This document shows positions 7,689 through 58,880 of a DNA stretch of 64,000 nucleotides, in pieces (position 1 is the first letter of the stretch; every line of letters starts with the position of its first letter). The translations under genes and the position numbers were made by a program. The notes beneath the pieces were generated by a model, which was not told the origin of the DNA, did no database searches, and worked only from the letters and a program-made list of their open reading frames with translations. This DNA comes from a virus: IMG/VR virus record IMGVR_UViG_3300029876_000390; one strand, 5' to 3'.

Positions 7689-7700
7689 AGGGGGAACGAG

Positions 7701-19129: not shown

Positions 19130-20401
19130 ATGAAAGCGACTGCTGAACTGAAGATGCTGCCGGTGTCCGTACTCAAGCCGGCCGCATACAATCCCCGGAA
19201 AAAGCTGAAGCCGGGGGATAAAGAGTACGAGAAGATCAAGAACTCCATCACGGAGTTCGGTTTCGCAGATCCTTTGGTGGTCAATGCCGACATGACGATC
19301 ATCGGTGGTCACCAGAGACTGACCGTAGCGATGGAGCTGGGATACACCGAAGTGCCTTGTGCGGTGGTGGACATCGACAAGACCAGGGAGAAAGCCCTGA
19401 ACATCGCACTCAACAAGATCACGGGTGCATGGGATGATTCTCTGCTGGCTGACCTGCTCAAGGACATCGAAGATTCCAACTTCGACCTCGGTAAGACAGG
19501 CTTTGACCCGCCTGAGATCGAGACGCTGTTCAACAAGGTCCACAGCAAAGAGGTCAAGGAAGATGACTTCGATGTGGAATCGGAGCTGAAGCAGCCGTGC
19601 TTCTCCAAAGAGGGCGACCTCTGGCATCTGGGTAAGCACATCGTTCTGTGCGGCGATTCCACCAAGCCAGAATGCTACGATACCCTGATGGACGGCACCA
19701 AGGCCAATCTGGTTCTTTCCGATCCCCCTTATAACGTGGATGTGGAAGAAACGGCTGGCAAGATCCTGAATGACAACATGGGCGATTCGGAATTCTACCA
19801 GTTCCTGCTGGCAGCGTTCCAGCAGATGCACGGGCATCTGGCGGATGACGGCTCCATCTATATCTTCCATGCAGATACGGAAGGGCTGAACTTTAGAAAG
19901 GCATTCAAGGATGCAGGGTTCTACCTGTCCGGGTGCTGTATCTGGAAGAAGAATGCTCTGGTGCTGGGACGCAGTCCATACCAGTGGCAGCACGAGCCGT
20001 GTCTTTACGGCTGGAAGCAGAAGGGGAAACACCAGTGGTATTCCGACCGGAAGCAGACGACCATCTGGGAGTATGACCGGCCGAAGTCCAACAAGGACCA
20101 TCCGACCATGAAGCCCATCGGCCTGATGAGCTATCCGATCCGAAATTCCACCATGACCAACGGCATCGTCCTCGATCCGTTCCTTGGCAGCGGTTCTACC
20201 CTGATCGCCTGCGAAGAAACCGACCGTGTGTGCCGAGGCATCGAGCTGGACCCGAAGTTCGTGGATGTGATCGTGAAGCGTTATATCGAACACAGCGAGG
20301 GTCACTACGATGATGTGTATGTCATCCGTGACAGTCAGAAGCTGAAGTTCGAGGAAGTGGCGACCTTCGAGCCGGAAAGGGAGGTCGCTGATGGAGAATA
20401 A
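19130..20401 (+). CDS. ParB-like nuclease domain fused to DNA methyltransferase (N6-adenine / N4-cytosine class, DPPY motif).
   Basis: ParB N-domain motif IIGGHQRL; methylase motif IV LVLSDPPYNV and AdoMet-binding region LDPFLGSGST. Confidence 0.8.
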   Translation: MKATAELKMLPVSVLKPAAYNPRKKLKPGDKEYEKIKNSITEFGFADPLVVNADMTIIGGHQRLTVAMELGYTEVPCAVVDIDKTREKALNIALNKITGAWDDSLLADLLKDIEDSNFDLGKTGFDPPEIETLFNKVHSKEVKEDDFDVESELKQPCFSKEGDLWHLGKHIVLCGDSTKPECYDTLMDGTKANLVLSDPPYNVDVEETAGKILNDNMGDSEFYQFLLAAFQQMHGHLADDGSIYIFHADTEGLNFRKAFKDAGFYLSGCCIWKKNALVLGRSPYQWQHEPCLYGWKQKGKHQWYSDRKQTTIWEYDRPKSNKDHPTMKPIGLMSYPIRNSTMTNGIVLDPFLGSGSTLIACEETDRVCRGIELDPKFVDVIVKRYIEHSEGHYDDVYVIRDSQKLKFEEVATFEPEREVADGE

Positions 20402-31517: not shown

Positions 31518-31997
31518 ATGGCTACCAGAGGCAGAAAACCAAAGCCGACCGCCATGAAGGAGCTGGAAGGCAATCCGGGCAAGCATCCGCTGAACACCAG
31601 CGAACCGAAGCCTAACAAGAAAGCACCGGCCTGTCCGAAGTGGCTGGAGCCGGAAGCAAAGAAAGAGTGGCGCAGACTTGCAAAACAGATGGAAGCCATC
31701 GGCATCCTGACCGAAGTGGATATGGCGGCCTTTGCCGGTTACTGTCAGGCATATGCCCGATGGAAGGAGGCAGAGGAGTTCATCACCCAGCACGGCACCA
31801 TTGTCAAGACCCCGTCCGGCTACTGGCAGCAGGTGCCGCAGGTGTCCATCGCACAGACCTATCTGAAGATTATGAACAAGTTCGCAGAGCAGTTCGGCCT
31901 GACCCCGTCCTCCCGAAGCCGCATCATTGCTTCGGACGGCGGTCCTGCGGATGCTACCGATGAGATGGAAAATCTGCTGGGAGGAGGTGGAAGCTGA
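31518..31997 (+). CDS. terS: Terminase small subunit, P27 family.
   Basis: KELEGNPGKHPLN motif and Lys/Arg-rich N-terminus typical of P27-family terS; RBS AAAGGAGG 8 nt before ATG 31518. Confidence 0.8.
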   Translation: MATRGRKPKPTAMKELEGNPGKHPLNTSEPKPNKKAPACPKWLEPEAKKEWRRLAKQMEAIGILTEVDMAAFAGYCQAYARWKEAEEFITQHGTIVKTPSGYWQQVPQVSIAQTYLKIMNKFAEQFGLTPSSRSRIIASDGGPADATDEMENLLGGGGS

Positions 31998-33622
31998 TGG
32001 CAGAGTGCAGACCGAAAAACTATCCGAAACTGAAGGACTATAAACCAAGTCGGTTCATGCTTCCCAGCTGCCATTACGATGCCGCAAAAGCAGATCGGGC
32101 AGTAACCTTTATTGAGAACCTCCGACACACCAAAGGTAAGTGGGCAGGAAAGCGGTTCTGGCTGCTTCCGTGGCAGGAGCAGATCATCCGGGATGTGTTC
32201 GGCATCGTGGACGAAAAAGGGAACCGTCAGTTTCGCACGGCTTATGTCGAAATCGGCAAGAAAAACGGAAAATCCGAGCTTGCCGCTGCGGTGGCCTTGT
32301 ATCTGCTTTTTGCCGATAATGAGCCGTCTGCTGAAGTCTATGGTGCTGCCGCTGACCGCCAGCAGGCATCCATCGTTTTTGATGTTGCCCATCAGATGGT
32401 GCAGATGACCCCGGCACTTTTGAAACGGTGCAAGATCATGGCAGCCACCAAGCGAATCGTGAACTACGGAAACGCAGGATTCTATCAGGTTTTGTCTGCA
32501 GAAGTCGGTACGAAGCACGGCTTGAACGTGTCTGGTCTTGTTCTGGATGAGGTTCATGCCCAGCCAAACCGAAAACTCTACGATGTCCTTACCAAAGGTT
32601 CCGGTGATGCCCGTGAACAGCCTCTGTTCTTTTTAATCACCACGGCCGGCACGGACAAGGAGAGCATCTGTTACGAGCTCCACATGAAGGCACTTGACCT
32701 GTTGGCCGGACGTAAGATCGACCACACCTTCTACCCCGTGGTTTATGGACTGACAGATGAAGATGACTGGCACGATGAAGCCAACTGGTATAAAGCCAAT
32801 CCCTCTCTCGGCCAGACCATCCAGATCCAGCGTGTCCGGGATGCGTACCAGGAAGCACTTGATAACCCGGCAGAGGAGAATGTGTTCAAGCAGCTCCGTC
32901 TGAATATGTGGGTGTCCTCGTTGACCCGGTTCATACCGGAACACATCTACAACCTCGGCAACCAGCCTATCGACCTTGAAGCCCTCAAGGGCCGTGACTG
33001 TTATGGAGGACTCGACTTGTCCAGCACCGGAGACATCACGGCTTTTGTGCTGATGTTCCCGCCCAGAGTTCCAGAGGAAAAATACATCATGCTTCCGTTC
33101 TTCTGGATACCGGAGGATACGATTCCCCAGCGTGTGCGCAGGGCATCCGTTCCGTATGATGTCTGGTATCAGCAGGGCTACCTGATGGCGACCGAGGGCA
33201 ATGTCATCCATTACGGTTTCATTGAGAAGGTCATCGAGGAGCTGGGCAAGACTTATCACATTTTGGAGATTGCCTTTGACCGATGGGGAGCGGTGCAGAT
33301 GACCCAGAACCTTGAGGGGATGGGATTCACAGTTGTGCCTTTCGGTCAGGGCTTTAAAGATATGAGCCCGCCTACCAAGGAGTTCTACAAGCTCCTGATG
33401 GAAGGCAGGATCATCCACGGCGGTAATCCGGTCATGGCATGGATGGCGGGGAATGTGGTCGTGGATACCGACCCAGCTGGCAACATCAAGCCGACCAAGG
33501 CGAAGTCGCCGGAGAAGATCGATGGTATCGTCGCTGCGATCATGGCACTGGACCGCTGTATCCGAAATGAAGGTCAGCAGCAGGGAAGCGTCTACGACGA
33601 ACGTGACATGATTGTTTTTTGA
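31997..33622 (+). CDS. terL: Terminase large subunit (Terminase_1-like ATPase + nuclease).
   Basis: Walker A VEIGKKNGKSELAAAV, Walker B LVLDEVH, C-terminal nuclease region with DGIVAAIMAL. Confidence 0.9.
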   Translation: MAECRPKNYPKLKDYKPSRFMLPSCHYDAAKADRAVTFIENLRHTKGKWAGKRFWLLPWQEQIIRDVFGIVDEKGNRQFRTAYVEIGKKNGKSELAAAVALYLLFADNEPSAEVYGAAADRQQASIVFDVAHQMVQMTPALLKRCKIMAATKRIVNYGNAGFYQVLSAEVGTKHGLNVSGLVLDEVHAQPNRKLYDVLTKGSGDAREQPLFFLITTAGTDKESICYELHMKALDLLAGRKIDHTFYPVVYGLTDEDDWHDEANWYKANPSLGQTIQIQRVRDAYQEALDNPAEENVFKQLRLNMWVSSLTRFIPEHIYNLGNQPIDLEALKGRDCYGGLDLSSTGDITAFVLMFPPRVPEEKYIMLPFFWIPEDTIPQRVRRASVPYDVWYQQGYLMATEGNVIHYGFIEKVIEELGKTYHILEIAFDRWGAVQMTQNLEGMGFTVVPFGQGFKDMSPPTKEFYKLLMEGRIIHGGNPVMAWMAGNVVVDTDPAGNIKPTKAKSPEKIDGIVAAIMALDRCIRNEGQQQGSVYDERDMIVF

Positions 33623-33646: not shown

Positions 33647-33862
33647 ATGAAGTATCTGATGAGTGCAGAATGGTGGAAGGCAGCCGGCATCCGCGCTGCA
33701 AAGACGATGTTCCAGACCGGCGCGGCTCTGGTCGTGACACAGATGCCCGGCGGCACTGTGGACTGGACGGCGGTCGGCAGTGCAGTGATCGTGGCGGGTG
33801 TTGCGTCCCTCGGTACCAGCCTTGCCGGTCTGCCGGAACTGGAGAAAGGGGATAAGGCCTAA
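33647..33862 (+). CDS. Small hydrophobic / membrane protein (holin-like or packaging-associated).
   Basis: RBS GGAGG 8 nt before ATG 33647; 71 aa with hydrophobic segments AALVVTQMPGG and VIVAGVASLGTSLAGL. Confidence 0.45.
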   Translation: MKYLMSAEWWKAAGIRAAKTMFQTGAALVVTQMPGGTVDWTAVGSAVIVAGVASLGTSLAGLPELEKGDKA

Positions 33863-35259
33863 TGGGATTCTGGGAATGGATGGGGTTTGAGAACCCAAGG
33901 GATTCTCCCAAAACAGAACAGCCAAAAGAAGGTCTGCCGCAGGTCACGGATAACGTCCGAGATTCCGGGCAGACCTTTGTGTTTGGCCGCTCCAATGCCG
34001 GGGAGCAGGTGGATGAGAAAGCCGCCATGCAGATCCCGACTGTGTATGCCTGTGTCCGTCTGCTGGCGGAGTCCATTGCGGCACTGCCGCTGCATCTGTA
34101 CCGGGTGACAGACGATAACGGCAACAAGGAAAAGGCGCGGGATCATCCGTTGTACAAGATTCTGTATCGCCAGCCCAACCCAGAGATGACATCCTTTGTC
34201 TTTTGGGAAACGCTGATGACTCACTTGCTTCTCTGGGGCAACGCCTACGCACAGATCGTCCGGGATGGCAAGAACACGGTGCTGGGGCTGTATCCGCTTT
34301 TGCCGGAAAATGTCGAAGTCGACCGGGATGAGAGCGGTGAGCTCTATTATATCTACCACGCATACACGGATGAAGTTCCGGGAGAGCAGAATAAAGACCT
34401 CTACTTCCGCCGGGACGAGATCTTCCATGTGCCGGGTCTGGGTTTCAATGGTCTGATCGGTTTTTCACCGATCGCCATGATGAAGAACAGCCTCGGCACT
34501 TCCATTGCGGTGGACAAGTATGGCTCGTCCTTCTTCAAGAATGGTGCACAGCCCAGTGGTGTACTGGAACACCCCGGTGTTTTAAAAGACCCGAATCGTG
34601 TCCGGGATAACTGGGAGGCAGCATATGGCGGTGCAGCCAATGCCCATCGCGTGGCTGTGCTGGAAGAGGGCATGGCCTACAAACCGATCTCTCTGCCACC
34701 GGAGGACAGTCAGTTCCTTGAAACGAAACAGTTTTCTGTGACGGAGATCTGCCGTATTTTCCGTGTGCCTCCGCATCTGGTAGCTGATCTGTCCAGAGCT
34801 ACCTTTTCTAACATTGAATACCAGTCGCTGAACTTTGTGATGCACTCCCTGACCCCGTGGCTTGTCCGCATCGAGCAGGGCATCATCAAGGATCTGCTGC
34901 TGGAAGAGGAGCAGGATACCTACTTCCCAAAATTCAATGTGGACGGTCTGCTCCGTGGCGACTACCAGAGCCGGATGAACGGTTACGCGACCGGCATCAG
35001 CAACGGCTTCCTCTCTCCGAATGATGTGCATCGTCTGGAGAACATGGATCTCATCCCGGCAGAGGAGGGCGGAGATGACTACTATCTGAACGGCGGCTAT
35101 GTGAAGCTGAAAGATGCAGGGGTGGCACAGCAAAATAAAGCTGCCGCAGTCCAGCAGAATCAGCCGAAACAGACACAGCCCGAAACGGAAGAAGAACCTG
35201 ACAGCGATAACCGGCTGAGTGAGAGTAAGCCAAAGAAACGAGAAAGGAGAACCCGATGA
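33862..35259 (+). CDS. Portal protein, HK97 family.
   Basis: Position after terL and before the prohead protease; length 465 aa; C-terminal acidic/basic tail; conserved portal core segments such as GNAYAQIVRDG and LPPEDSQFLETKQF. Confidence 0.8.
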   Translation: MGFWEWMGFENPRDSPKTEQPKEGLPQVTDNVRDSGQTFVFGRSNAGEQVDEKAAMQIPTVYACVRLLAESIAALPLHLYRVTDDNGNKEKARDHPLYKILYRQPNPEMTSFVFWETLMTHLLLWGNAYAQIVRDGKNTVLGLYPLLPENVEVDRDESGELYYIYHAYTDEVPGEQNKDLYFRRDEIFHVPGLGFNGLIGFSPIAMMKNSLGTSIAVDKYGSSFFKNGAQPSGVLEHPGVLKDPNRVRDNWEAAYGGAANAHRVAVLEEGMAYKPISLPPEDSQFLETKQFSVTEICRIFRVPPHLVADLSRATFSNIEYQSLNFVMHSLTPWLVRIEQGIIKDLLLEEEQDTYFPKFNVDGLLRGDYQSRMNGYATGISNGFLSPNDVHRLENMDLIPAEEGGDDYYLNGGYVKLKDAGVAQQNKAAAVQQNQPKQTQPETEEEPDSDNRLSESKPKKRERRTR

Positions 35260-45600: not shown

Positions 45601-48111
45601 TCCGGGATTTCCTCTACGATTTCCGGTATCAAGTCCACCATCACGAACGGTTTTAACAGTGCAGTTTCCTTTATCAAGGGTCTGGCTGGACAGGCGTTCT
45701 CGTGGGGCTCTGACATGATCGGCAACATTGTGTCCGGTATCCAGTCGAGGATTCAGGATGTGGCAAGTGCTGTATCGGGAGTGGCAGACCGTATCCGTTC
45801 CTTCCTGCACTTCTCTGTGCCGGATGAAGGACCTCTGGCAGATATGGAAAGCTGGATGCCGGACTTCATGCAGGGTCTGGCAAACGGTATCACGACCAAC
45901 ACCAGCCTTGTGACTGCGGCGGCGGAGAACCTGTCCACCACGCTGTCTACCTCCATCACCAACTCCATGAGGGGTGTGGAGCAGGCATACAGTAAGAGCT
46001 GGGCAGCCATCAGCCAGACGGTGAAAACCGGAACGGCAGGTGTGAGTGCTGCGATGAGATCCGCATGGAGTTCCATTACGACCAGTACCGCCAGCACATG
46101 GAATACCATCAAGTCCAGTATCCAGAACAGCTTCTCGGTGGTGAAATCCAATGTGACCTCTGCGACAGCAGCAGTGAAAACGTCCATGACCAGTGCATGG
46201 AATGCGGTGAAGTCGCTGACAACGACCAGCTGGAACGGAATTAAAACGGTCATTACCACAGCGTGGAACGGGATTAAATCCCTTACCACCTCTGCGACCG
46301 CTTCTGTAAAAACGTCCATGACCAGCGCATGGAATGCGGTGAAAAACCTGACGAATACCAGCTGGAATGGTATCAAAACAGTCATCACGACTGCATGGAA
46401 CAGCATCAAGAGTCTTACAACTTCCTCTGTATCCGCAGTTCGCAGTACGGTCACAAGCGGCTGGAACACACTGAAATCTACCACGACCTCTGCCTTCAAC
46501 AGCATCAAGTCCGCGGTGTCTTCGGCAATGTCCAGCCTGCGCAGCACGGTTTCTTCTGGTGTTGCAAGTATCAGGAGCAGTTTTAACTCGCTCGGTTCGA
46601 TTGCTTCTTCGGCATACCGCTGGGGTGCAGATATCTGTTCCCAGATGGCGTCAGGTGTCCGGGCAGCAGCCGGTTCCGTGATCGCAGCGGCAGAAAATGT
46701 CGCAAGCAGGGTCAGAAGTCTGCTGCATTTCTCTGTACCAGATGAAGGACCTCTGTCCGATGCAGATACCTATATGCCGGACTTCATGAAGCTGCTGGCG
46801 ATCGGCATTAAGAAAAATGTCAAGTCGGTGGTGAAAGCCGTGCAGGGACTTGCCGGGTCTATGAGCAACAACCTCACGACCCCGGTAGATTCTCTGGGCG
46901 ACTGGATGGATTCCGTGGTCGGCAGTTTTGCTACCACGATCAAGAAAAGTCAGAGCGGTATCGGTAGTGCTGCAAGGAATGCGGGCAGCGGTATCCAGTC
47001 CCAGTTGATGTCCGGGCTTTCCGGTCTGAAAACACAGTTCCAGCAGATCTGGACTGACCTGCAGGGTATCACCAAAACCGCAGTCGGCGGCATGAGCGAT
47101 GAAGTGAAGCAGGGCTTTTCGGATATGAAGGATTCCATTGGAGAGCTGAGTTCTCAGACCAGTTCCCTTGGAAATGCGATCCGCAGTCTTGGCGATACCT
47201 TCAACTCGGATTTCCTAAAGAGCCTGGGCAACGGCATCAGCAAGGTCGGTGACACGGTCAATACGGTCACGGGTCTAGTGGACAAGCTCGGCTCTATGAA
47301 GAACACCATCGGAAATCTCGGAAATACGATGCAGAACCTTGGCAATGTCCTCGGTACAGAGAACGGCGGTGGTCTGTTGTCCAACATCGGAGATTTCTTG
47401 TCGAAGATCGGCAGTGCAGATGGAGGTCAGATCGTGTCGAAGTTTGGCAATCTGATCTCTGGGCTGACCTCTAAAATGGGCGGTCTGGGAGAGGGAATCT
47501 CCGGCATCATCTCGAAGCTGGGAAGCCTTGGCTCCAGCGGTGGGGGAATCCTGTCGAATCTGGGCGGGCTGCTTTCCGGTGTAGTGTCGAAGATCGGCGG
47601 CTTAGGCGGCAGTCTTTCTGGGCTTCTGTCTGGTGTGGGTTCCACATTGGGCGGAATTGCTGGTTCTGCCGGTTCCGCAATCGCAGGACTGTTCGGCTCG
47701 GTTGGCACGACCGTATCCGGTCTGGCTGCTGGTGCGGGATCGGCTCTGGCTGGTATCGCTTCCTCGGCCGGAGGAGTGCTTGCTTCGGCAGGTACAGCAT
47801 TGGCCGGTCTTGCCGGTCCTGCAGGTATCGCAGTGGCAGCCGTTGGCGGCATCGGTCTTGGACTTACCGCTCTCTGGAAAAACTGCGATGGCTTCCGGGA
47901 AGGTGTCACAAATATCTGGAACAAGGTTACGTCGGTATTCTCGAATGGTGTGAATGCAGAACCTTTCCAAAACGATCAGTTCCGTGTCGACGGATATGCA
48001 GGTGGTCATGAAGCAGAAATCTGCGTTCACCGGAAAGAAGATCCTGTTTTTGGGAGACAGCATCACGGCACTGAACACATCGGAGCGTGGCTGGGTAAGA
48101 TACTTCAATGA
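42634..48111 (+). CDS. Tail tape measure protein (1825 aa) with extensive internal tandem repeats and a C-terminal Gly-rich region.
   Basis: N-terminal coiled coil, TMP-like core (VGKKFLPVTAAVTGLGTAAVKTAADFDSEMSKVSAISGATGDDFDQLRAKAREMGAKTKFSASEAASAMEYMAMAGW), more than 25 degenerate repeats of the SxWNAIxT...T type, RBS AAGGAGGTGGTCATCCAC before ATG 42634. Confidence 0.8.
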   Translation: MASRIQGITVEIGGDTTKLSKALESVNKSIKGTQSGLKDVNKLLKLDPSNTELVVQKQKMLKDAIEATKEKLATLKTAAQQANEQLANGEITQQQYDALQREIVETEQNLRSLQDQAATTNATLAKIDEVGEKLQNIGSSVENVGKKFLPVTAAVTGLGTAAVKTAADFDSEMSKVSAISGATGDDFDQLRAKAREMGAKTKFSASEAASAMEYMAMAGWKTSDMLNGIEGVMNLAAASGEDLATTSDIVTDALTAFGLSAADSGHFADILAAASSNANTNVSMMGETFKYCAPIAGALGFSAEDTAEAIGLMANSGIKASQAGTSLRTIMNNLSGEVTFVGKNIGEVTIATSNADGSMRSLNDILADCRVAFSGLSESEKAANAEALVGKNAMSGFLALMNSSETDINKLRGAIENCDGASESMAETMQDNLNGQLTILKSQLEELAISFGDILMPTIRKIVSAVQQLVDKLNSMDEGTRETIIKIGLLAASIGPLLIVLGKTISTVGTAMRGFSSLAKGVRLLITHVGSASGVFSKLGVVLGGLSGPVVAVVAVIGTLVAAFMNLWNTNEEFRTAITSIWNDIVSKVKGFCDQLTQRINGLGFDFKDVTEVLKAVWDGFCQVLAPLFEGAFQNIATILGVVLDTLLGLFDVFSNVFSGNWSGAWEAVKGIFSSIWDGVKSIFSTTLTALKSALDVFLGLFGTDWQTVWGSIKSFFETVWSGISSFFSNTVSAIQSVATTVFTAVSGFFTTVLTSIQTTFSTIWTAIYTAVSSVLNTIHTTVTTVWTAISTAISTVMNTISTTITSVWNGIYNTIKPLLDAFKYLFETIWQAIQILISAALTAIQTKISSIWNAIVAFVTPMLTGLQTTFSTVWSAIQTAISTVLTAIQTAVTTVWNAIVSFLSPLLTGIQTRMSTAWNAIKTVISTVLSAIQSTVSSIWNAISSKIYGVVNGIKSVVSSGWNAMKSTVSSLSNSIKSAATTAFNSMKSGISSTISGIKSTITNGFNSAVSFIKGLAGQAFSWGSDMIGNIVSGIQSRIQDVASAVSGVADRIRSFLHFSVPDEGPLADMESWMPDFMQGLANGITTNTSLVTAAAENLSTTLSTSITNSMRGVEQAYSKSWAAISQTVKTGTAGVSAAMRSAWSSITTSTASTWNTIKSSIQNSFSVVKSNVTSATAAVKTSMTSAWNAVKSLTTTSWNGIKTVITTAWNGIKSLTTSATASVKTSMTSAWNAVKNLTNTSWNGIKTVITTAWNSIKSLTTSSVSAVRSTVTSGWNTLKSTTTSAFNSIKSAVSSAMSSLRSTVSSGVASIRSSFNSLGSIASSAYRWGADICSQMASGVRAAAGSVIAAAENVASRVRSLLHFSVPDEGPLSDADTYMPDFMKLLAIGIKKNVKSVVKAVQGLAGSMSNNLTTPVDSLGDWMDSVVGSFATTIKKSQSGIGSAARNAGSGIQSQLMSGLSGLKTQFQQIWTDLQGITKTAVGGMSDEVKQGFSDMKDSIGELSSQTSSLGNAIRSLGDTFNSDFLKSLGNGISKVGDTVNTVTGLVDKLGSMKNTIGNLGNTMQNLGNVLGTENGGGLLSNIGDFLSKIGSADGGQIVSKFGNLISGLTSKMGGLGEGISGIISKLGSLGSSGGGILSNLGGLLSGVVSKIGGLGGSLSGLLSGVGSTLGGIAGSAGSAIAGLFGSVGTTVSGLAAGAGSALAGIASSAGGVLASAGTALAGLAGPAGIAVAAVGGIGLGLTALWKNCDGFREGVTNIWNKVTSVFSNGVNAEPFQNDQFRVDGYAGGHEAEICVHRKEDPVFGRQHHGTEHIGAWLGKILQ

Positions 48112-50420: not shown

Positions 50421-50483
50421 CAAAATAACCACAGCACGAGACTCGGAGTGATCCGGGTCTCGATTTTTTTAGGAGGAATCGAT

Positions 50484-51956
50484 ATGGGATACACCAATAG
50501 TCCACTCGTTGTTTACACCAAACTCTCCCCGAACCATTCCGGGCAGAGAACACACAGCATTGACCGCATCACGCCGCATTGCGTGGTAGGCCAGCTTTCT
50601 GCAGAGAGCATTTGCGGATGTTTTACCAGTCCGACCCGTCAGGCCAGCTGTAACTATGGCATTGGCACGGACGGCCGTGTTTCTCTGTGCGTGAAGGAGA
50701 AGAACCGCAGCTGGTGCTCGTCCAGCAATTCCAATGACCAGAGAGCAGTCACCATCGAATGTGCCAGCGACATGAATGAGCCGTATGCGATGAACAGCGC
50801 CGTATATAACTCGCTCGTTAAGCTCTGCATCGATATCTGCAAACGTAACGGCAAGAAGAAGCTCCTGTGGCTGGGCGACAAGAATAAAACCCTCAACTAC
50901 GCTCCGGCAGCAGACGAGATGATCCTGACTGTTCATCGCTGGTTTGCCAACAAAAGCTGTCCCGGAAACTGGCTGTACGCCCGTCTGGGTGATCTGGCAG
51001 CAAGGGTGACGGCGGCACTTGGCGGTTCATCTTCATCCGGCCTGCAGGCATCTTCCCTTAAGAACCTGTCTGAAGCCGAGGCAGTGGCAGAGATCGGTCC
51101 ATTGTTTACCGAAAACCAGAAGCAGTCCGGCATCCTTGCCTGCGTGTCGATGGCGCAGTTTATTCTGGAGTCCGGCTACGGTAAGAGTGAATTGGCACAG
51201 AATGCTAATAACTGCTTTGGCATGAAGACCTCGCTTTCCGGGAACAGCTGGAGCGGCAGCAGTTGGGATGGCAAGTCGGTCTATACCAAGAAAACGCAGG
51301 AGCAGAATGCCGATGGCAGCTATGTCACGATTACCGCTAATTTCCGAAAGTACGCCTGTGTGGAGGACTCCATTGCCGACCACGCGGCATATCTGCTTGG
51401 TGCGATGAATGGCAGCAGGAAACGTTATGAAGGTCTGGCAGGATGCACGGATTACAAGAAGGCTGTGCAGATCATCAAGGATGGCGGCTATGCCACCAGC
51501 CACACCTATGTGCAGAATCTCTGCAATATCATCGAACGCTGGAACCTGACACAGTATAATGCTGCAACCCAGAACCATGAAAGTATCATCTCTGGCTGGT
51601 ATCGTGTGCGTAAGAGCTGGCAGAATGCAGCTTCCCAGAAAGGGGCGTTCCATGATCTGTCCTATGCGAAGCAGTGTGCGGATGCGAATCCGGGGTATAC
51701 GGTTTTTGACCCGACCGGAAAGGCGGTCTATCCTGTGAATCAGACTGCGTCTGTGCCGTATGCGGTTCGAGTGTCCATCAATGACCTCAACATCCGTAAA
51801 GGACCAGGCACAAACTACGGCAAGACCGGTTATTACACCGGAAGGGGCGTGTTCACCATCGTGGCAGAATCTGCTGGTGCTGGTTCTGTGAAAGGCTGGG
51901 GCAAGCTGAAATCCGGTGCAGGCTGGATCGCACTTGACTTCGCAGCACGTATCTGA
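50484..51956 (+). CDS. Endolysin: N-acetylmuramoyl-L-alanine amidase (amidase_2/PGRP) + glucosaminidase domain + C-terminal SH3-like repeats.
   Basis: Amidase_2 region HSIDRITPHCVVG...TIECASD; glucosaminidase motif ILACVSMAQFILESGYGKSELAQNANNCFGMK; two SH3-like repeats (GWYRVRKSWQN..., VRVSINDLNIRKGPGTNYG...). Confidence 0.8.
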   Translation: MGYTNSPLVVYTKLSPNHSGQRTHSIDRITPHCVVGQLSAESICGCFTSPTRQASCNYGIGTDGRVSLCVKEKNRSWCSSSNSNDQRAVTIECASDMNEPYAMNSAVYNSLVKLCIDICKRNGKKKLLWLGDKNKTLNYAPAADEMILTVHRWFANKSCPGNWLYARLGDLAARVTAALGGSSSSGLQASSLKNLSEAEAVAEIGPLFTENQKQSGILACVSMAQFILESGYGKSELAQNANNCFGMKTSLSGNSWSGSSWDGKSVYTKKTQEQNADGSYVTITANFRKYACVEDSIADHAAYLLGAMNGSRKRYEGLAGCTDYKKAVQIIKDGGYATSHTYVQNLCNIIERWNLTQYNAATQNHESIISGWYRVRKSWQNAASQKGAFHDLSYAKQCADANPGYTVFDPTGKAVYPVNQTASVPYAVRVSINDLNIRKGPGTNYGKTGYYTGRGVFTIVAESAGAGSVKGWGKLKSGAGWIALDFAARI

Positions 51957-52176
51957 CCTTCATGGGCTTTCCTGAAAAGGAGAGCCTTTTACATACAACG
52001 CAATCGTCAGTTCTGCCCGATTATATGGGCAGATATTCTACGATTTATAGTTCGGATATCACTTGCTATAAGTGCCGGATAGAGCAAATATGTCACTACC
52101 CGAAGATAGGAAAAGGCGGTGGCATTACCACACGTTTTCCTTTCGGAAGGAAAATCTGACGAAAGGAGAGGACGAT

Positions 52177-54279
52177 ATGGAGTCAAATGCTTTTCTGAAT
52201 GACTTGATGTCAAAGATGAAGCTGCCGGAAGCAAAAGGAAAGAAAAAGGCAGAACAGAGTGAATCGGTGGCGCAGATTCTTGCCGCCATGCAAAAGGTCA
52301 AGACTGAGAAAAAGAAGCCGCCTGTAACCAGCTACGCACCGACAAAAGAAATGCCGGTGAATGAGCTGGAGAGTATGGAAGAATTCTCCCAGCTCGCATC
52401 CGATGTGATGCAGGAATGCCGGCCGGCAATACCAGCGGTGAAAACATCAATTTCAGAGAAGACTGTTCGGGTCGCCGCATATATCCGTGTTTCTTCCACC
52501 AATCCGGCACAGGAGGATTCGTATGAAATGCAGGAACGCTACTTTATGTCACTCCTGGCAGGAAATGCAGGGTGGACATCCGCCGGCATTTATTCCGATC
52601 ATGGCATTTCCGCAACAAGCAGGGAAGGACGGACAGGTTTCAACCGTTTGCTCCGGCACTGCAAGCAGGGGAAAATTGACCGTGTAATCTGCAAGTCCAT
52701 CAGCCGTTTTGCCCGAAACACGCAGGACTTCCTTGTGGCATTGCGGACCTTAAAGGAAAACAATGTCACGATCCTGTTTGAGCGGGAAGCGATGGATACA
52801 GCGGATGCTTACAGCGAGTTCATTCTTACTACGCTGGCCGCCATTGCCCAGGAAGAGAGCCGTTCGATTTCAGCAAACATTGCATGGAGCAATCAGAAAC
52901 GGTTTCCGGCCGGAAATGTCTGCAACAAGGATATCTACGGATACGAATTCCGCAAAGGGGAGTATACAGTGAACGAGAACGGATACCGATACCGGGCAGT
53001 GTTCATCATCCCGGAAGAAGCAGAGATTGTTCGGATGGTGTTCCGGTTTTTTACAAAAGAAGAGCTGAGCTTCACACAGATCGCCCAGAAGCTGGATGCC
53101 CTGCATATCCCGCCGCCGAACAGCGGATGCAGACAGCGGCAAAAGCGGAAGCCGACTGTGCTGCCAGCTGGCGCACTAAAGGAAGAAGATAAGCGGGGGT
53201 GGACGGCAACGGATGTTCGGTACATGATCGCAAATGTTCGTTACTGCGGTTCCGTACTTTGTCAGAAGACCTTCACCGATCACAGGAATGGGCATAAACA
53301 GAAGGTCAATAAGGGGGAAAAGCCGAAATACCTGATACGAAATCATCATCCGGCTATCATTTCGGAAGAATTGTGGCAGGAAGCACAGGAAGTCTGGAAG
53401 GCATACACGGCAAAGTATAGGGGCATCGAAAAGGGAAGAAACGAAAGAAACTATTCCAAGCTCCTGCTGTGTGGAGAATGCGGACGGTATTTTCAAGGCC
53501 ATTCCACAACAAGGACAACCATCTGGCGGTGTGCGACGAAGCTCGCCCAGCAGGGACAGAAGCGCTGCCGAATGGAACCGATTTATGAAGAGCAGATCCA
53601 GACGCTGCTTTGCAAAGCATTTGCCGAAAAATTCAAGCTGGGTGAGAAGATGGATGCAGAAGTCCATGAGGTCATGCAGATGATCTCCAAAGCACCCATT
53701 GATAATGCGAGAAATCAGGCATTAAAGAACCTGACTGAGAAGCTGAGAGAGATCCATGATTTCGACCATATGGAGCAGGAAGGGGATTTTCTGAAACGCC
53801 AGCTGTCTGCAGTGAACTATAGCATTCGGGATGTCCACCAGCACATTCGGGATATTCAGGCGGAAAAAGAAGCATTGAAAGTGCGATGTGAGGTGCTGGG
53901 AGAACCGAGAGATAAAGAAGCAGTCACAGAGTTAGAAAACCGACTTCTCAATGAAGAAGAACAGCTGGAGAAGCTGGAACATGAAGCCCAGCAACAGGCC
54001 GAACAGGTTCGGTACATGGAAGATTACTGGAAGAAGCTGGAGCAGACCCATGAAATCCGGGAGAAAACGCTGCAATGGCTGGATTCTCTGGCGGGAGGGA
54101 CGCAGATGTTTCTGGATGAAGCAGTTGGAACGTATGTGAAAGCCTTTGTGCTTTCCGTTACCATTTTTTCACCGAAACATTTTAGAATCCACTGGTTTGA
54201 TGACACCTGTACGGAAGTGGAGTGTGACAGCGTATTTGAGGGCTATCAGCAGCCTGGCATGATAAGGAGGAAGTATTGA
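52177..54279 (+). CDS. Large serine recombinase (integrase), first of a tandem pair.
   Basis: Resolvase catalytic domain VAAYIRVSSTNPAQEDSYEMQ...DRVICKSISRFARN, recombinase domain, zinc-ribbon (CGECGRYF...CRCA...CR), coiled-coil C-terminus. Confidence 0.85.
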   Translation: MESNAFLNDLMSKMKLPEAKGKKKAEQSESVAQILAAMQKVKTEKKKPPVTSYAPTKEMPVNELESMEEFSQLASDVMQECRPAIPAVKTSISEKTVRVAAYIRVSSTNPAQEDSYEMQERYFMSLLAGNAGWTSAGIYSDHGISATSREGRTGFNRLLRHCKQGKIDRVICKSISRFARNTQDFLVALRTLKENNVTILFEREAMDTADAYSEFILTTLAAIAQEESRSISANIAWSNQKRFPAGNVCNKDIYGYEFRKGEYTVNENGYRYRAVFIIPEEAEIVRMVFRFFTKEELSFTQIAQKLDALHIPPPNSGCRQRQKRKPTVLPAGALKEEDKRGWTATDVRYMIANVRYCGSVLCQKTFTDHRNGHKQKVNKGEKPKYLIRNHHPAIISEELWQEAQEVWKAYTAKYRGIEKGRNERNYSKLLLCGECGRYFQGHSTTRTTIWRCATKLAQQGQKRCRMEPIYEEQIQTLLCKAFAEKFKLGEKMDAEVHEVMQMISKAPIDNARNQALKNLTEKLREIHDFDHMEQEGDFLKRQLSAVNYSIRDVHQHIRDIQAEKEALKVRCEVLGEPRDKEAVTELENRLLNEEEQLEKLEHEAQQQAEQVRYMEDYWKKLEQTHEIREKTLQWLDSLAGGTQMFLDEAVGTYVKAFVLSVTIFSPKHFRIHWFDDTCTEVECDSVFEGYQQPGMIRRKY

Positions 54280-56483
54280 TGAACAGACAAATGACACAAG
54301 GGACGGTTGCAAACAATGTGCAGGTGATTCCGGCAACGAAGCGGAGAGTGTCTGCCGGCGGTCAGCTGAAAAAGGCAAAGGACATTCGGGTTGCCGCTTA
54401 CGGCCGTGTTTCAACCGATGAGCTTGCCCAGCAGATTTCGTATGAGGGGCAGAAAAGCTATTACACGAAGCTGATCAATGAAAAAGAAGGCTGGACTTTT
54501 GCCGGAATGTATGCAGATGAAGCAATCTCCGGCACCAACCGTAACCACCGCACCGAGTTTAATCAGATGATGCAGGATGCGCTGGACGGGAAGATCGATT
54601 ACATCATTACAAAGTCCATTTCCCGATTTGCACGAAATACGGTCGATACGCTGAACTGCGTGAGACAGCTTCGGCAGTGTGACCCGCCAATCGGTGTATA
54701 CTTCGAAAAGGAGAACATTGACACGCTGGATGCGTCTGGCGAACTGCTCCTGACCATCCTTTCAGCATTGGCACAGGAAGAGAGCAATTCGATCTCCAAG
54801 AATATCAGCTGGAGTATTCAAAAGCGGTTTCAGGAAGGGATTGCCTTTGGAAACCCACGGTCGGTCTACGGTTATACGGACGGTGAGACGAATAAGGACT
54901 GGGTCATTGTAGAAGAACAGGCCAAGGTGGTGCGGTTCATCTTCGATGAGTTCCTTCTGGGAAAATCTTCTTACAAAATCAGCAATGAACTGAATGAAAA
55001 GGGAATTCCTTCATCCAAAGGGACAAAATGGCAAAGCGAAAGTGTGGATTTTATCCTCCGGAATGAAAAATATGTTGGTGACTGCGAAATGCAGAAAACG
55101 GTTACCGTCGATTTCCTGAGCCACAAGACGATTCCAAACAATGGAGAAGCTCCGAAATTTTATGTGACGGACCACCATGTCCCAATTATCAATCGCGCGG
55201 TATGGATGCGGGCACAGGAAATCCTGGCACACAGAAAGAAAAACCGAACGAAAAAGAAGGATGAAAAGCGGGAAAAACGAGTGGGCAAGGATGTCTTTGA
55301 TAACCTGGTATGCGGAAAATGCGGAGCCCCCTTTTACCGCAGAACCCTGCAGGCAAGAGCCACGCACTTCGAGGATGACAGGTGCCTAGATGCCTGCCGC
55401 AGTGAGCTGTTGGCACAGGGGAGTTCGCCGGATGACTACTATGAACGGTATTATTACACCTATCCCGTTTGGCGGTGCTCAAGTCTAAAAGATACCTCAC
55501 CGACCAACGATGGGCCATTTATGGGAAAAGCAGACCCGGATGTTGCCTGGCATCCGATTTATATTGGCGAAGGAGATGCAAAGTGCCCTTCCCATTTTGT
55601 ATACGAGACGGCGGTCAAGCAGAGCTTCATGGAAATGTTGTACGCCATCAAGCGCGACCATGAAGAAAACGGGGAGAACGCATGGATCGATTCGGAATTC
55701 CGGATGATCTACCAGAAGGTGCAGGAGCACGTCGCAGAACGGGATTCTTCCAGAAAAACAGAACTGGATGAGCAGATTCTGCAGCTGGAGGAAAAAATGG
55801 CTCAGATGCAGGGGCGGCTGAAAGAAGCAGTAGAGCGTGGCCGCCAGAAAGCCAGCCCGGAGATTGATACCTACGAAAGACTGGTGGATGATCTGCGAGA
55901 GCGTTTGAATGAGAAAATGGACGAACGGCAGCAACTCAGCCAGGAAGAACAGCTTCTTTCGGAGATGAAGCACAACTACGACTTTTTCATCCGCTGCCTG
56001 GAAGCCCTGCCCGAAATCAACAAGGCCGGCATGAAGCTGAATGTCAATGGTCTGGATACAGATGGAAGCTGCCTGCGTGACTTTGGCGGCAAGGCACGAA
56101 GCAAAATCCTGAGTGATATCCGGCGTGGAAAAAGAAAGATGGGTGCAGACCGGGTGGAACAGGCTCCGGATTTCCTGGAATTTGAAAAGGGCGTTTACTT
56201 CGCATTCATCAAGGAAGGAATCGTTGACGGTGATGTGATCACCTACACGACGAATTTTGGAGTCAAGCTGACCAGCACCGGCAACAGCCGGACGCTGATG
56301 GCTTTCATCGGATTCCGCAGATGCAATCCGAATAAAACGGTCGAGGTGCTGATGGACGGCTGGCAGGTCAACGGACTCTGCATTCGGTACCATAGAGAAA
56401 AGAGAAAGGAAAAAACGGCACACACGCTGATGATCCGGAAACGGAAAGCACAAGAACGAGCATTGCTGGAGCAGGAAGCGTGA
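54279..56483 (+). CDS. Large serine recombinase (integrase), second of the tandem pair.
   Basis: VAAYGRVSTDELAQQISYEGQ...DYIITKSISRFARN; TGATG start-stop overlap with the first recombinase; zinc-ribbon CGKCGAPF. Confidence 0.85.
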   Translation: MNRQMTQGTVANNVQVIPATKRRVSAGGQLKKAKDIRVAAYGRVSTDELAQQISYEGQKSYYTKLINEKEGWTFAGMYADEAISGTNRNHRTEFNQMMQDALDGKIDYIITKSISRFARNTVDTLNCVRQLRQCDPPIGVYFEKENIDTLDASGELLLTILSALAQEESNSISKNISWSIQKRFQEGIAFGNPRSVYGYTDGETNKDWVIVEEQAKVVRFIFDEFLLGKSSYKISNELNEKGIPSSKGTKWQSESVDFILRNEKYVGDCEMQKTVTVDFLSHKTIPNNGEAPKFYVTDHHVPIINRAVWMRAQEILAHRKKNRTKKKDEKREKRVGKDVFDNLVCGKCGAPFYRRTLQARATHFEDDRCLDACRSELLAQGSSPDDYYERYYYTYPVWRCSSLKDTSPTNDGPFMGKADPDVAWHPIYIGEGDAKCPSHFVYETAVKQSFMEMLYAIKRDHEENGENAWIDSEFRMIYQKVQEHVAERDSSRKTELDEQILQLEEKMAQMQGRLKEAVERGRQKASPEIDTYERLVDDLRERLNEKMDERQQLSQEEQLLSEMKHNYDFFIRCLEALPEINKAGMKLNVNGLDTDGSCLRDFGGKARSKILSDIRRGKRKMGADRVEQAPDFLEFEKGVYFAFIKEGIVDGDVITYTTNFGVKLTSTGNSRTLMAFIGFRRCNPNKTVEVLMDGWQVNGLCIRYHREKRKEKTAHTLMIRKRKAQERALLEQEA

Positions 56484-56492
56484 TTTTGGGAA

Positions 56493-56545
56493 CCCCACTG
56501 GATGAGACACTCTGTCTTGTCTGGTGGGGATTTTTTTGTTTTTGG
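56493..56545 (+). terminator. Strong intrinsic terminator after the tandem recombinases, probably at the prophage right end.
   Basis: CCCCACtggatgagacactctgtcttgtctgGTGGGGa followed by TTTTTTTGTTTTT. Confidence 0.5.
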
Positions 56546-56630
56546 AGGATTTTTTTCCGAACCCATTGCTATGTGCAAAATTCTGCTATATGTTGAGAGT
56601 ACAGAAATACACATAGCAGGAGAGAACGAC

Positions 56631-57029
56631 ATGAAGAGATTAGCATGGCTTTCAGTAGAAGATTATGCAGCGACCCAGATGGAGCTGGTGGTCGTGAGTG
56701 CAATGAAAGGGTATCTGCGGCGGATGCCGGAGAAAGAAGCATTTAAAAAAGTAGAGGCTATCCTTGACCCGAAGGTAATCCGGTTAACCGGTGATGATGG
56801 CGCACCGATGCCTATACAAAGCAATGTTGACGGAGCAAAGCTCGCTGCGTTCATCGATGCGGCCGTGGCAGACAGCATCAGGGAGCTGGAGAAGAGGGAA
56901 GATGGCCTGTCAAAAGCTGGCGTGACTATGTTAGGAAATGTGGATGGTAAGAGCATGGTGGAGCAGATGAGTCCCCAGTTTTTGGAGTTCGTACTGGATG
57001 CGTATCGGAATTTGAAATACGGAAAATAA
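56631..57029 (+). CDS. Hypothetical protein.
   Basis: RBS CAGGAGAGAACGAC before ATG 56631; 132 aa. Confidence 0.45.
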   Translation: MKRLAWLSVEDYAATQMELVVVSAMKGYLRRMPEKEAFKKVEAILDPKVIRLTGDDGAPMPIQSNVDGAKLAAFIDAAVADSIRELEKREDGLSKAGVTMLGNVDGKSMVEQMSPQFLEFVLDAYRNLKYGK

Positions 57030-57043
57030 AAACGAAAAAGGCG

Positions 57044-57072
57044 TTGATAATTTCTGAAGAATAGGGTATAAT
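57044..57072 (+). promoter_or_regulatory. Consensus sigma-70-type promoter TTGATA-N17-TATAAT in an AT-rich islet.
   Basis: gcgTTGATAatttctgaagaatagggTATAATgaatt, 55 nt upstream of the ATPase gene. Confidence 0.5.
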
Positions 57073-57126
57073 GAATTTGATGGAAAATAAAAACGTGAAA
57101 ACCGTTTTTAGAAGGGAGAATGGTAC

Positions 57127-58278
57127 ATGAAAATACTTCGTATTACAGCACAAGGGCTTCCGTTGTTTAAGGAGGACTTGGATATTTGCTTTTACACTCA
57201 GCAGCGTGTGAGTGAAGATGACAAGAATAATTTGTACAACCTGATTGATAACTATTACCTTCATTCTGCATGTGCGTTTATTGGAATCAATGCTTCTGGT
57301 AAAACCTCTGTGTTGAAAGTCATCAATTTAGCACTGAACATTATAAAGAATGAGCCAATCAATCATGTGGAGGCAAAAACCATTCTTGGAGGATCAGAGA
57401 AAGCTACGATTCGCACATACTTTTATGATAAGCGCAAATATATCTGCTGTCTTGAAACCGTGATTACAGCGAAAAAAGCAAAGACAGGCGAGTATGTGTA
57501 TTCAATCTTGTCTGAAAGACTATGGGAGAAGCCGATTGCAAGCGTTAAGTCGAAAAAATATTTGACGGATTTCGATGGAATAGAGCCTGTTGATTCACGT
57601 AATAGCAATGAAGCTTATCTTTCAGATGATGTCAGCTTTATTATCGCTCATAATAAAAAGGTAAATGACGCTGTTGATGTGTTTAGCCTTCTTTCTTATA
57701 CGAATGTGAATGTTTTGCCTTTTACAGAAGATATTCCGCTGGAAGTGATTACTTTTCTTGACCCGACTATCGAGAAGCTATGTTTTGAGCAGGCGGAAGG
57801 AAAAACATTTATTCATCTGAAATTTACAGATGAAGATGAGATTATCTTGAATAATGCGGTAGATCTTGAGCAGTATTTGTCTTCTGGTACAATTAAGGGC
57901 ATTATTACATTTTCGATGGTGAAAGAGGTTCTTCAATCTGGAGGATACCTTCTGGTAGATGAAATTGAAAATCATTTTAATAAAGAAATTGTAACGACTC
58001 TGATGCGCTTCTTCATGGACAGCCGACTTAACAAAAGAGGCGGAACGCTGATTTTTACAACGCATTATCCGGAACTGCTGGATGAATATGACCGAAATGA
58101 TGGAATTTGTATCGTAAGAAATCGAAATGGCATTACAGTGGAAAACTTGAGCTATATTCTAAAGCGCAATGACATTAAGAAGAGCGATGCATATCAAAGC
58201 GGATTCCTGGAAGGAACAACTCCTGCGTATGAAGCATATATGCGTTTGAAGAAAAATCTGGCCGCTTCAATTAAATAA
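57127..58278 (+). CDS. AAA_21/ABC-type ATPase (AriA/AbiLi/OLD-ATPase-like) of a two-gene defence module.
   Basis: Walker A GINASGKTSVLKV, Walker B GYLLVDEIENHF, H-loop LIFTTHYPELL; low GC (about 38%) versus about 55% in the surroundings. Confidence 0.75.
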   Translation: MKILRITAQGLPLFKEDLDICFYTQQRVSEDDKNNLYNLIDNYYLHSACAFIGINASGKTSVLKVINLALNIIKNEPINHVEAKTILGGSEKATIRTYFYDKRKYICCLETVITAKKAKTGEYVYSILSERLWEKPIASVKSKKYLTDFDGIEPVDSRNSNEAYLSDDVSFIIAHNKKVNDAVDVFSLLSYTNVNVLPFTEDIPLEVITFLDPTIEKLCFEQAEGKTFIHLKFTDEDEIILNNAVDLEQYLSSGTIKGIITFSMVKEVLQSGGYLLVDEIENHFNKEIVTTLMRFFMDSRLNKRGGTLIFTTHYPELLDEYDRNDGICIVRNRNGITVENLSYILKRNDIKKSDAYQSGFLEGTTPAYEAYMRLKKNLAASIK

Positions 58279-58291
58279 GGGAGGCGGTAGG

Positions 58292-58810
58292 ATGAAGTTA
58301 GCACCATATATAGCGTGTATATGTGAAGGATCAGCAGAAGCTGCAATTATTGATGTTCTAGTGGATAATAATCTTTTGATTTTTACAAGAGAAGATATGC
58401 TTGAAGAAAGTGTTATTCGCTGCAGGAGTGCTAAGACATTTGAGGAACGCTTCTTACGTAAAGGATTTAAAGATCAGATTTCTGTCATAAGGATTCTTGA
58501 CTCTCGGAGAGAAGAGTTTAGGCTTAGCAAAGCCTATGAGAAGAAGGTTGATGTGATCAATGTTATTACTGCTCCAGAGATAGAGATGCTGATTATTCAT
58601 AGCGAAGGAGCTTATGAGCGATTTAAGCGTTCAGGAAAGAAACCTAGTGAATTCTGTAAAGCAGATCTTCGTATGCATAATGTGAAATCGTATGATTTTG
58701 TGAAAGATTATTTTAGTAATCCACAGACATTAGTTAATGCAATAAAAGAGTATCGTAGAACCGCAAATATTCCTAAAGGTGAATATAGTTTATCAGATCT
58801 GTTAAAATAA
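58292..58810 (+). CDS. Small Toprim-like (DUF4435/RloB-like) partner protein of the ATPase; family assignment tentative.
   Basis: N-terminal YIACICEGSAEAAIIDVL resembles the first Toprim motif (conserved Glu in xEGxxD); 172 aa; translationally adjacent to the ATPase (14-nt gap, RBS GGGAGGCGGTAGG). Confidence 0.45.
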   Translation: MKLAPYIACICEGSAEAAIIDVLVDNNLLIFTREDMLEESVIRCRSAKTFEERFLRKGFKDQISVIRILDSRREEFRLSKAYEKKVDVINVITAPEIEMLIIHSEGAYERFKRSGKKPSEFCKADLRMHNVKSYDFVKDYFSNPQTLVNAIKEYRRTANIPKGEYSLSDLLK

Positions 58811-58880
58811 AGATTTGCCCACTGGCGAACTGTGTAACTCTTACATGGTACGCTTGTGGTCTTCTTTTTTTTTGCCTCAT

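Follow-up and report, generated by a model that had tools for sequence, protein, structure and literature searches.

Modules that pair an ATPase with a Toprim domain, such as OLD, Gabija, PARIS and AbiL, are among the most widespread bacterial immune systems. In PARIS, the ATPase AriA cages AriB until a phage trigger frees it, and AriB cleaves tRNA (PMC11464382). In the nuclease BpOLD, a two-metal site has been described which is composed of E400 after strand 1, E404 in helix 1, D455 and D457 (the DxD motif), T506 and E508 in the first helix of the helical domain, and K562 (PMC6755086). AbiLii, the partner of AbiLi in AbiL, has been reported to align with the OLD C-terminal region over 123 of 206 residues (PMC13064643). 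Furthermore, the NetFlax AAA(D29):TOPRIM_OLD(D44/D60) pairs of C. algidicarnis and S. agalactiae 2603V/R have been validated as toxin-antitoxin pairs by toxicity and neutralisation (PMC10440598). The present study concerns a two-gene cassette which occupies positions 57020-58810 of a viral stretch of 64,000 nucleotides (nt), the IMG/VR record IMGVR_UViG_3300029876_000390, hereafter called the window, and which encodes an ATP-binding cassette (ABC) ATPase of 383 amino acids (aa) followed by a protein of 172 aa. A preliminary description, made from the sequence, had presented it as a PARIS/AbiL-like defence pair with a truncated second component.

The best explanation of the region is a horizontally acquired, self-contained cassette consisting of a promoter, an ATPase gene and a small-protein gene, which a Lachnospiraceae prophage bears as cargo at its integrase end. 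Overall, the cassette is AbiL/PARIS-like in its architecture and in its probable mechanism, and it is a member of neither system as currently defined. Its features, together with the hairpin that follows it, are:

57021-57045, + strand: repeat R1, GGAAAATAAAAACG-N7-CGTT, at the left end of the cassette and overlapping the -35 box; candidate operator
57044-57072, + strand: sigma-70-type promoter TTGATA-17-TATAAT, matching at 11/12 positions and conserved across contexts
57082-57106, + strand: repeat R2, in the 5' untranslated region, 84% identical to R1; second candidate operator
57127-58278, + strand: ABC-type ATPase (AAA_21), AbiLi-like, 383 aa, recognised by Pfam AAA_21 and PADLOC AbiLi
58292-58810, + strand: 172-aa protein of an unannotated family, proposed as a metal-dependent nuclease effector or toxin, with an N-terminal Toprim-like alpha/beta core at about residues 1-97 and a helical bundle at about 98-172
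58809-58873, + strand: intrinsic terminator-like hairpin with a U-run (dG -22 kcal/mol, z = -4.8 against shuffles)

The low-GC islet first noticed at 57.0-58.8 kb is confirmed: the guanine-cytosine (GC) fraction of 57020-58810 is 0.367 (36.7%) against 0.514 (51.4%) for the whole window, the lowest among 1245 sliding windows of the same length (mean 0.516, standard deviation 0.036) and about four standard deviations under their mean. A pattern scan covering one genome per species revealed 283 genomes with a relative, mostly Lachnospiraceae and other gut Clostridia of human and animal origin. The nearest copies were found in an uncultured Lachnospiraceae metagenome-assembled genome (MAG; 99%) and in Blautia sp. 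Sow4_E7 (98%), and the pair is present on Ligilactobacillus and Bifidobacterium plasmids too. The linkage between the two genes was counted over the 74 loci with enough upstream sequence: in 73 of them the ATPase gene directly precedes the small gene in the same orientation, the tblastn alignments ending 12-21 nt apart, and in the sole exception, a decayed copy (L096, 3388-4563), an IS110-family transposase is inserted between the ATPase and the small gene. One of the 73 loci, also decayed (L106, 3096-3176), retains only about the last 27 residues of the ATPase, upstream of an intact small gene; if the small protein were a toxin, one would expect this copy to be inactive or to be neutralised in some other way. 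The identities of the two proteins to their window copies co-vary closely (Pearson r = 0.95, n = 92).

The boundaries of the cassette are sharp as well. Among 93 loci from other contexts, the DNA shared with the window begins at 57020-57029 in 63 and stops at 58780-58819, about the stop codon, in 74, while the flanks fall into at least 37 unrelated upstream groups and at least 43 downstream groups. The two genes are thus almost always adjacent and co-evolve, and the cassette moves as a unit with its promoter. In the comparison of the window with the 93 other-context loci, neither flanking repeats nor a target duplication were seen around the cassette, and it carries no recombinase gene. The promoter is mobile along with the genes and the terminator is not: a comparable hairpin with a T-run occurs in 24 of 71 distinct downstream regions, and the terminator was rejected as a part of the cassette because it is not conserved elsewhere and cassette homology mostly stops at about 58780-58819, the hairpin being a matter of local context. 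Cassettes 70-85% identical to the window copy were also recovered on contigs of MAGs binned as Bacteroidaceae, Prevotella, Paludibacteraceae, Muribaculum, Escherichia coli and Spirochaetales (loci L049, L054, L059, L060, L064, L085, L075, L076 and L101); the copies spread from Bacteroidaceae to Spirochaetales reflect either wide horizontal transfer or MAG binning errors.

The ATPase gene is preceded by the ribosome-binding site AAGGGAGA, 7 nt ahead of its ATG, and its product carries the Walker A motif GINASGKTS, the Walker B motif LLVDEIE and the TTHYPE motif, as initially read. The assignment to the AAA_21 family (PF13304) is borne out by a Pfam match of 51.2 bits against a cut-off of 27 (2.5e-13, profile positions 3-304 of 304). 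Internal stops are absent from all 71 distinct full-length homologues compared, and the key residues are invariant among them, namely G53 and G58-K59-T60 of Walker A, S252-S253-G254-T255 of the signature, D278-E279 of Walker B and H313 of the H-loop. The top PADLOC model is AbiLi (PDLC02335, 4.5e-30). The ATPase also matches the PADLOC AriA model (PDLC02980, 1.2e-15), a score which is not discriminating because this model and Pfam AAA_21 span identical 304 positions and because ATPases of the true AbiLi type reach 5e-34 on the AriA model, above the window ATPase. By its sequence, the protein is an AAA_21 ABC ATPase with its catalytic residues intact, and AbiLi is its closest counterpart. Against PDB sequences it returned no match at E <= 0.01. 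Among phage protein families it matches phrog_5836 (function not assigned) over positions 4-403 of 1071 (1.6e-30), a family to which the 172-aa protein has no match; given the length of phrog_5836, a considerably longer and possibly fused relative of the ATPase may exist in some phages.

The relatives of the ATPase on annotated plasmids separate according to their partners. The nearest, with 30-34% identity, belong to Ligilactobacillus salivarius, Bifidobacterium longum and B. breve, and each is followed by a homologue of the 172-aa protein. In the next tier (Clostridium, Enterobacter, Vibrio, Agrobacterium and Peteryoungia), all five plasmid loci that were opened have the ATPase followed by an RloB-annotated protein of 179-219 aa. 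The RloB-partnered reference pairs L022 and L024 are recognised by PADLOC as AbiLi plus AbiLii, with AbiLi values of 1.4e-89 and 5.2e-87, and the values obtained on AbiLii among the reference RloBs (L022, L024 and L025) are 1.1e-26, 9.7e-20 and 4.4e-15, whereas window-type pairs reach 1e-27 to 1e-33 on AbiLi and return nothing for AbiLii. Because of this gap in the PADLOC scores, together with the type of partner, the window ATPase is placed in a sister clade of the RloA/AbiLi ATPases.

The gene for the 172-aa protein begins 13 nt after the ATPase gene (58279-58291), and not 14 as first counted, with the ribosome-binding site GGGAGG in the gap. At E <= 0.001, 2170 of the 90%-identity clusters are homologous to its product, and of the 120 matches listed almost every one has a length of 172 aa. 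An exhaustive profile search recovered 1006 family representatives at 50% identity (662 at E <= 1e-10), typically of 170-200 aa, none of which carries a precomputed Pfam domain. The protein is therefore a full-length member of a large and strongly conserved family. The truncation proposed in the preliminary description is contradicted by this family norm; the genuine RloB/AbiLii partners are themselves 179-219 aa long, and 172 aa is short only in comparison with AriB. The N-terminal motif CICEGSAEAAIID, on which the preliminary description had drawn, is present and contains the invariant residues E12, G13 and E16. Among 69 diverse members, 34-59% identical to the window protein, the residues E12, G13, E16, D70, E98 and K132 are invariant (initiator methionine aside), and T93, P95, E96, I97 and P118 are nearly so.

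The family is invisible to the reference collections that were searched. The window protein has no match in Pfam, NCBIfam, PADLOC, PHROGs or PDB sequences, and no AriB, AbiLii, RloB (PF13707), DUF4435 (PF14491) or DUF4276 model recognised it, although the first description had pointed to the AriB/DUF4435 and RloB models. The family members on the Ligilactobacillus and Bifidobacterium plasmids likewise have no RloB/AbiLii match, and searching PDB sequences with the window protein alone or with the 69-member family profile gave nothing but noise (MEF2, viral L protein). In RefSeq, some homologues bear the name 'N-6 DNA methylase', as in L021 at 7169-7711 (WP_095759350.1) and in P0401 of Limosilactobacillus mucosae; no methylase domain was detected in the homologues so named, and the name is for this reason probably a propagated mis-annotation.

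The AlphaFold2 model of the 172-aa protein, built on a diverse alignment, has a pLDDT (predicted local distance difference test) of 97.2 and a pTM (predicted template modelling score) of 0.91, and consists of a strand at 6-11, helices at 14-25 and 47-53, strands at 63-69 and 86-92, and a helical bundle from residue 98 to the C-terminus. A Foldseek search of the model against 350,542 PDB chains returned nothing at E <= 0.001. The top match is the C-terminal region of BpOLD (E 0.015, probability 0.51, TM 0.34), and the longest structural likeness in the PDB is to PH0156 (2P62) and to the Toprim plus helical region of OLD, with weak scores. Every structural alignment of at least 100 residues concerns OLD-type Toprim plus helical regions or PH0156, and CheY-like proteins score nearly as high as the Toprim matches. 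The evidence for a Toprim-like fold in the predicted structure is consistent across methods but weak, and the resemblance to OLD is of about the same degree as that reported for AbiLii (123 of 206 residues).

The conserved residues map onto this predicted fold as follows. E12 lies right after strand 1 and E16 four residues on, in helix 1; D70 stands right after the strand 63-69; the segment T93-x-P-E96-x-E98 bridges the final strand of the core and the first bundle helix, which E98 starts; and K132 lies within the bundle. The invariant E12, G13, E16, D70, E98 and K132 parallel E400, E404, D455, E508 and K562 of BpOLD. The RloB invariants are E30-G31...E35, D95-x-D97, N120...E124 and K163, and the spacing of the E-D-E-K series is 58/28/34 in the 172-aa family, 65/29/39 in RloB and 55/53/54 in BpOLD. 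Look-alike motifs are found in short proteobacterial RloBs, which have GEGEAE/CEGESE and SSPCLEGLLL/QEPCHEALLL where the 172-aa family has CEGSAE and TAPEIEMLII. From the sequence and the model, we infer that the 172-aa protein is a compact Toprim-type metal-dependent nuclease, in which E12, E16 and D70 would bind one metal and T93, E96 and E98 the second, with K132 completing the site, as in OLD nucleases.

On balance, we regard it as fairly probable that the cassette is an AbiL/PARIS-type module in which the ATPase silences and releases a Toprim-like nuclease, and the analogy suggests that the 172-aa family very probably works like RloB/AbiLii and AriB/DUF4435. The ABC ATPase would bind the nuclease and hold it inactive; once it senses a phage cue or an infection, it would set the nuclease free or switch it on. 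Cleavage of RNA (tRNA) or DNA by the nuclease would then lead to growth arrest or abortive infection and so protect the lysogen population. Precedents for such a mechanism are provided by PARIS (PMC11464382), AbiL (PMC13064643) and the AAA:TOPRIM_OLD toxin-antitoxin pairs (PMC10440598). Of the pair as originally proposed, the architecture stands, together with the AbiLi value of 4.5e-30 and the weak match of the model to OLD and PH0156, while membership of the small protein in RloB or AriB does not.

Several observations weigh against this reading. The second aspartate of the Toprim DxD motif is missing in the 172-aa protein, which has D70-S-R; in BpOLD, this aspartate touches metal A via water molecules only (PMC6755086). 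The hhalign comparison of the 69-sequence family profile with RloB, represented by 1, 38 or 42 sequences including the short proteobacterial ones (all PF13707), gave a probability of <=2%. Single members of the 69 graze RloB (E 0.001), DUF4276 (0.029) and AbiLii (0.023), so that the link to Toprim families is not significant. A phage-borne origin was considered and rejected, the 172-aa protein being without a match in 50,697 phage records and the ATPase having two partial matches only. Finally, many of the neighbourhoods in other genomes consist of ordinary genes, such as EF-G, MatE and ABC transporters, and also GNAT enzymes.

Judged by sequence, the 172-aa family belongs to neither RloB/AbiLii nor AriB/DUF4435 as currently defined, because the profile comparison stays so low and only single members graze the models. 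A further proposal is that the family constitutes a third, unnamed lineage of stand-alone mini-Toprim effectors next to RloB/AbiLii and AriB/DUF4435 and, with its AbiLi-related ATPase clade, forms a distinct anti-phage or toxin-antitoxin system missed by defence finders; we advance it tentatively, as a little short of an even chance. The main competitor of the AbiL/PARIS-type reading given above is that the cassette is merely a divergent true AbiL (RloA/RloB), the 172-aa family being an RloB subfamily beyond the reach of current hidden Markov models (HMMs). AbiLi is indeed the top model of the ATPase, RloB fills the same slot beside the nearest other ATPases, the lengths are similar (172 against 179-219 aa), the order and spacing of the motifs are almost those of RloB, and one member reaches RloB at E 0.001 and another AbiLii at 0.023. 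However, the window, Ligilactobacillus and Bifidobacterium proteins match neither PF13707 nor either of the PADLOC AbiLii models, the profile of 69 sequences aligned to 38-42 RloBs does not exceed a probability of 2%, and only one aspartate is left of the DxD motif that is kept throughout RloB. Moreover, AbiLi values of 1e-27 to 1e-33 contrast with about 1e-88 for RloB-partnered ATPases, and a separate clade is therefore indicated on both genes. A divergent AbiL is for these reasons considered unlikely.

The upstream region bears on a different explanation. The TTGATA-N17-TATAAT promoter noted at the outset is present at 57044-57072, and no other site in the 64 kb matches at 11/12 positions or more; as chance alone would produce about 0.7 of them, the match by itself is not significant. 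The assignment is supported by conservation across the upstream regions of other contexts: among 73 distinct sequences, TTGATA is found in 62, the 17-nt spacer in 62 and TATAAT or TATACT in 58. The promoter is bracketed by R1 and R2, a 25-nt direct repeat with a spacing of 61 nt and an internal AACG/CGTT dyad in each copy. The core AAACG-N6-8-CGTT occurs in 58 of the 73 distinct upstream regions against 0.1% of shuffles, and two copies 61-62 nt apart are present in 22 distinct upstream regions. By their sequence and placement, R1 and R2 probably serve as two operators through which the cassette regulates itself, in the manner of autoregulated toxin-antitoxin operons. Their use as recombination sites was rejected: copies occur solely at about -105 and about -45 from the ATG and never 3' of the cassette, and no common motif is evident in the listed left-hand flanks.

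An association with defence genes is visible, as a raw occurrence and not as an enrichment over a baseline: 150 neighbouring open reading frames (ORFs) from distinct contexts include type I restriction-modification (R-M) subunits, canonical AbiLi, SspH, PbeA and helicases. In the island of L001-L008, a RADAR-like pair (912 aa plus a 1012-aa adenosine deaminase, 9457 onward) lies near the cassette; a SWIM-domain protein is encoded upstream, and the small gene is followed by a 448-aa ORF, a tetratricopeptide repeat (TPR) protein and the RADAR-like pair. The 448-aa ORF (6516-7862), which has no Pfam or PADLOC match, has a 4-nt overlap with the small gene at its stop codon and is a possible third component. 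In another context, the cassette lies between ATPase_2/DUF234 and valyl-tRNA synthetase.

An addiction (toxin-antitoxin) module, stabilising the prophage or an integrative element and having no dedicated anti-phage role, would fit a cassette which sits between recombinase genes of mobile elements, adjoins other toxin-antitoxin genes on plasmids and has promoter-flanking repeats typical of autoregulated toxin-antitoxin operons. In addition, the NetFlax AAA:TOPRIM_OLD pairs are toxin-antitoxin systems, and the related A. guerrae AarT:AAA pair showed no defence phenotype in an E. coli phage screen (PMC10440598). On the other hand, many copies lie in plain chromosomal contexts where there is nothing to stabilise (ATPase_2/DUF234 and valyl-tRNA synthetase; EF-G, MatE), and the related PARIS and AbiL act as defences, the two roles being compatible. 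We consider a purely addictive role improbable, more so than a divergent AbiL. Least credible of all is a small protein acting as a non-catalytic adaptor, regulator or DNA-binding partner, with a flavodoxin-like fold plus helical bundle and with the ATPase or another gene as the active component: the weak fold matches with CheY-like proteins nearly equal, the incomplete DxD, the resemblance of the OLD helical domain to DNA-binding R-M controller proteins (PMC6755086) beside operator-like repeats flanking the promoter, and the 448-aa ORF over the 3' end of the small gene in one context would allow it, but six invariant residues (four acidic, one lysine) persist down to 34% identity at the secondary-structure positions of the OLD/RloB active site, all structural alignments of at least 100 residues are to OLD-type regions or PH0156, and no conserved third gene appears in the sampled contexts outside the L001-L008 island.

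The cassette resides at the end of a prophage among serine recombinase genes, in agreement with the position next to prophage integrases that had been noted early on. Positions 1-52 kb of the window hold a complete-looking tailed prophage whose host is a gut Lachnospiraceae, and the genes recognised in it and after it include:

14038-16488: primase, in the prophage part of the window
20391-22517: DNA methyltransferase, in the prophage part
31997-33619: large terminase, in the prophage part
33862-35256: portal, in the prophage part
36213-37415: major head protein, in the prophage part
42589-48108: tape measure protein of 1840 aa, in the prophage part
50448-51953: endolysin, in the prophage part
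52072-54279 and 54276-56483: two large serine recombinases in tandem, with overlapping stop and start codons
60557-62431: third large serine recombinase, after the XRE/AAA_25 pair

Downstream of the prophage genes, the order is that of two serine recombinases, a 175-aa ORF, the cassette, a divergent XRE regulator, an AAA_25 protein and the third serine recombinase. The three recombinases suggest a prophage with a two-recombinase integration module beside a second small integrative element, and the recombinase-cassette-XRE arrangement of the window also recurs in metagenomes. The 175-aa ORF between the recombinases and the cassette (56502-57029) has no Pfam or PHROGs match; it has a normal GC content and is conserved in same-context loci only (L009-L013, L028, L029). 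A terminator-like hairpin with a 17-bp stem (56493-56529) overlaps its start.

The family constitutes a clear annotation gap in gut Firmicutes, even if the architecture itself would be no surprise to a specialist, and the cassette would add a compact effector family recognised by none of Pfam, NCBIfam, PADLOC and PHROGs. As the family is abundant in gut Lachnospiraceae and is also found on plasmids of Ligilactobacillus and Bifidobacterium, inventories of the defence systems of gut Firmicutes probably count too few. With its 172 aa and incomplete DxD, the protein would represent a minimal model of the OLD-type two-metal site and of gating by an ABC ATPase. Of practical use are an HMM for annotation pipelines and the cassette itself, which is small, readily cloned and equipped with its native promoter.

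Among the described systems, the NetFlax pairs share with the cassette a small Toprim-like protein (in NetFlax a toxin neutralised by the ATPase), an adjacent AAA/ABC ATPase and an occurrence in Firmicutes, and differ in that D44 is RloB-like; a homology search seeded with the L. salivarius family member returned no streptococcal proteins (D60 being WP_000010056.1). In OLD of Class 1 and 2, and in GajA of Gabija, ATPase and Toprim are fused, unlike in the window, where the two ORFs are kept apart by a stop codon and a 13-nt spacer and the second has its own ribosome-binding site, a split arrangement which is kept in 73 of 74 genomes. Furthermore, the 172-aa protein falls short of the BpOLD C-terminal region by about 30 residues, has fewer residues from the aspartate to the glutamate-bearing helix, and has no detectable sequence similarity to OLD. 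PARIS, with an ABC ATPase and a separate Toprim nuclease, often on prophages or satellites, has the architecture proposed for the cassette, and PH0156 (2P62), the best structural match of the 172-aa protein, is also the top HHpred match reported for the lactococcal DUF4435 AriB (PMC11381338). Its differences lie in AriB, of about 280-300 aa with a DUF4435 dimerisation module that is absent from the matches of the 172-aa protein, and in AriA, of about 450-500 aa against 383 for the window ATPase; Ocr as the trigger and tRNA-Lys as the target are features of PARIS itself.

The closest comparison is with AbiL of the Lactococcus plasmid pND861 and with RloA-RloB, located by type I R-M loci. The partner of the window ATPase matches no RloB/AbiLii model and has the RloB DxD reduced to one aspartate, and on AbiLi the ATPase scores some 60 orders of magnitude below the ATPases that are paired with RloB. 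The rules of PADLOC and DefenseFinder presumably need both components, in which case the window system would not be called. What the two have in common is a co-directional operon in which an AAA_21 ABC ATPase comes first and a small Toprim-related protein (about 180-220 aa in AbiL and RloA-RloB) second, with AbiLi as the top model for the window ATPase, an order and spacing of the partner's motifs near those of RloB, and, for some window-type copies, a position adjoining type I R-M genes, as is the case for RloA-RloB.

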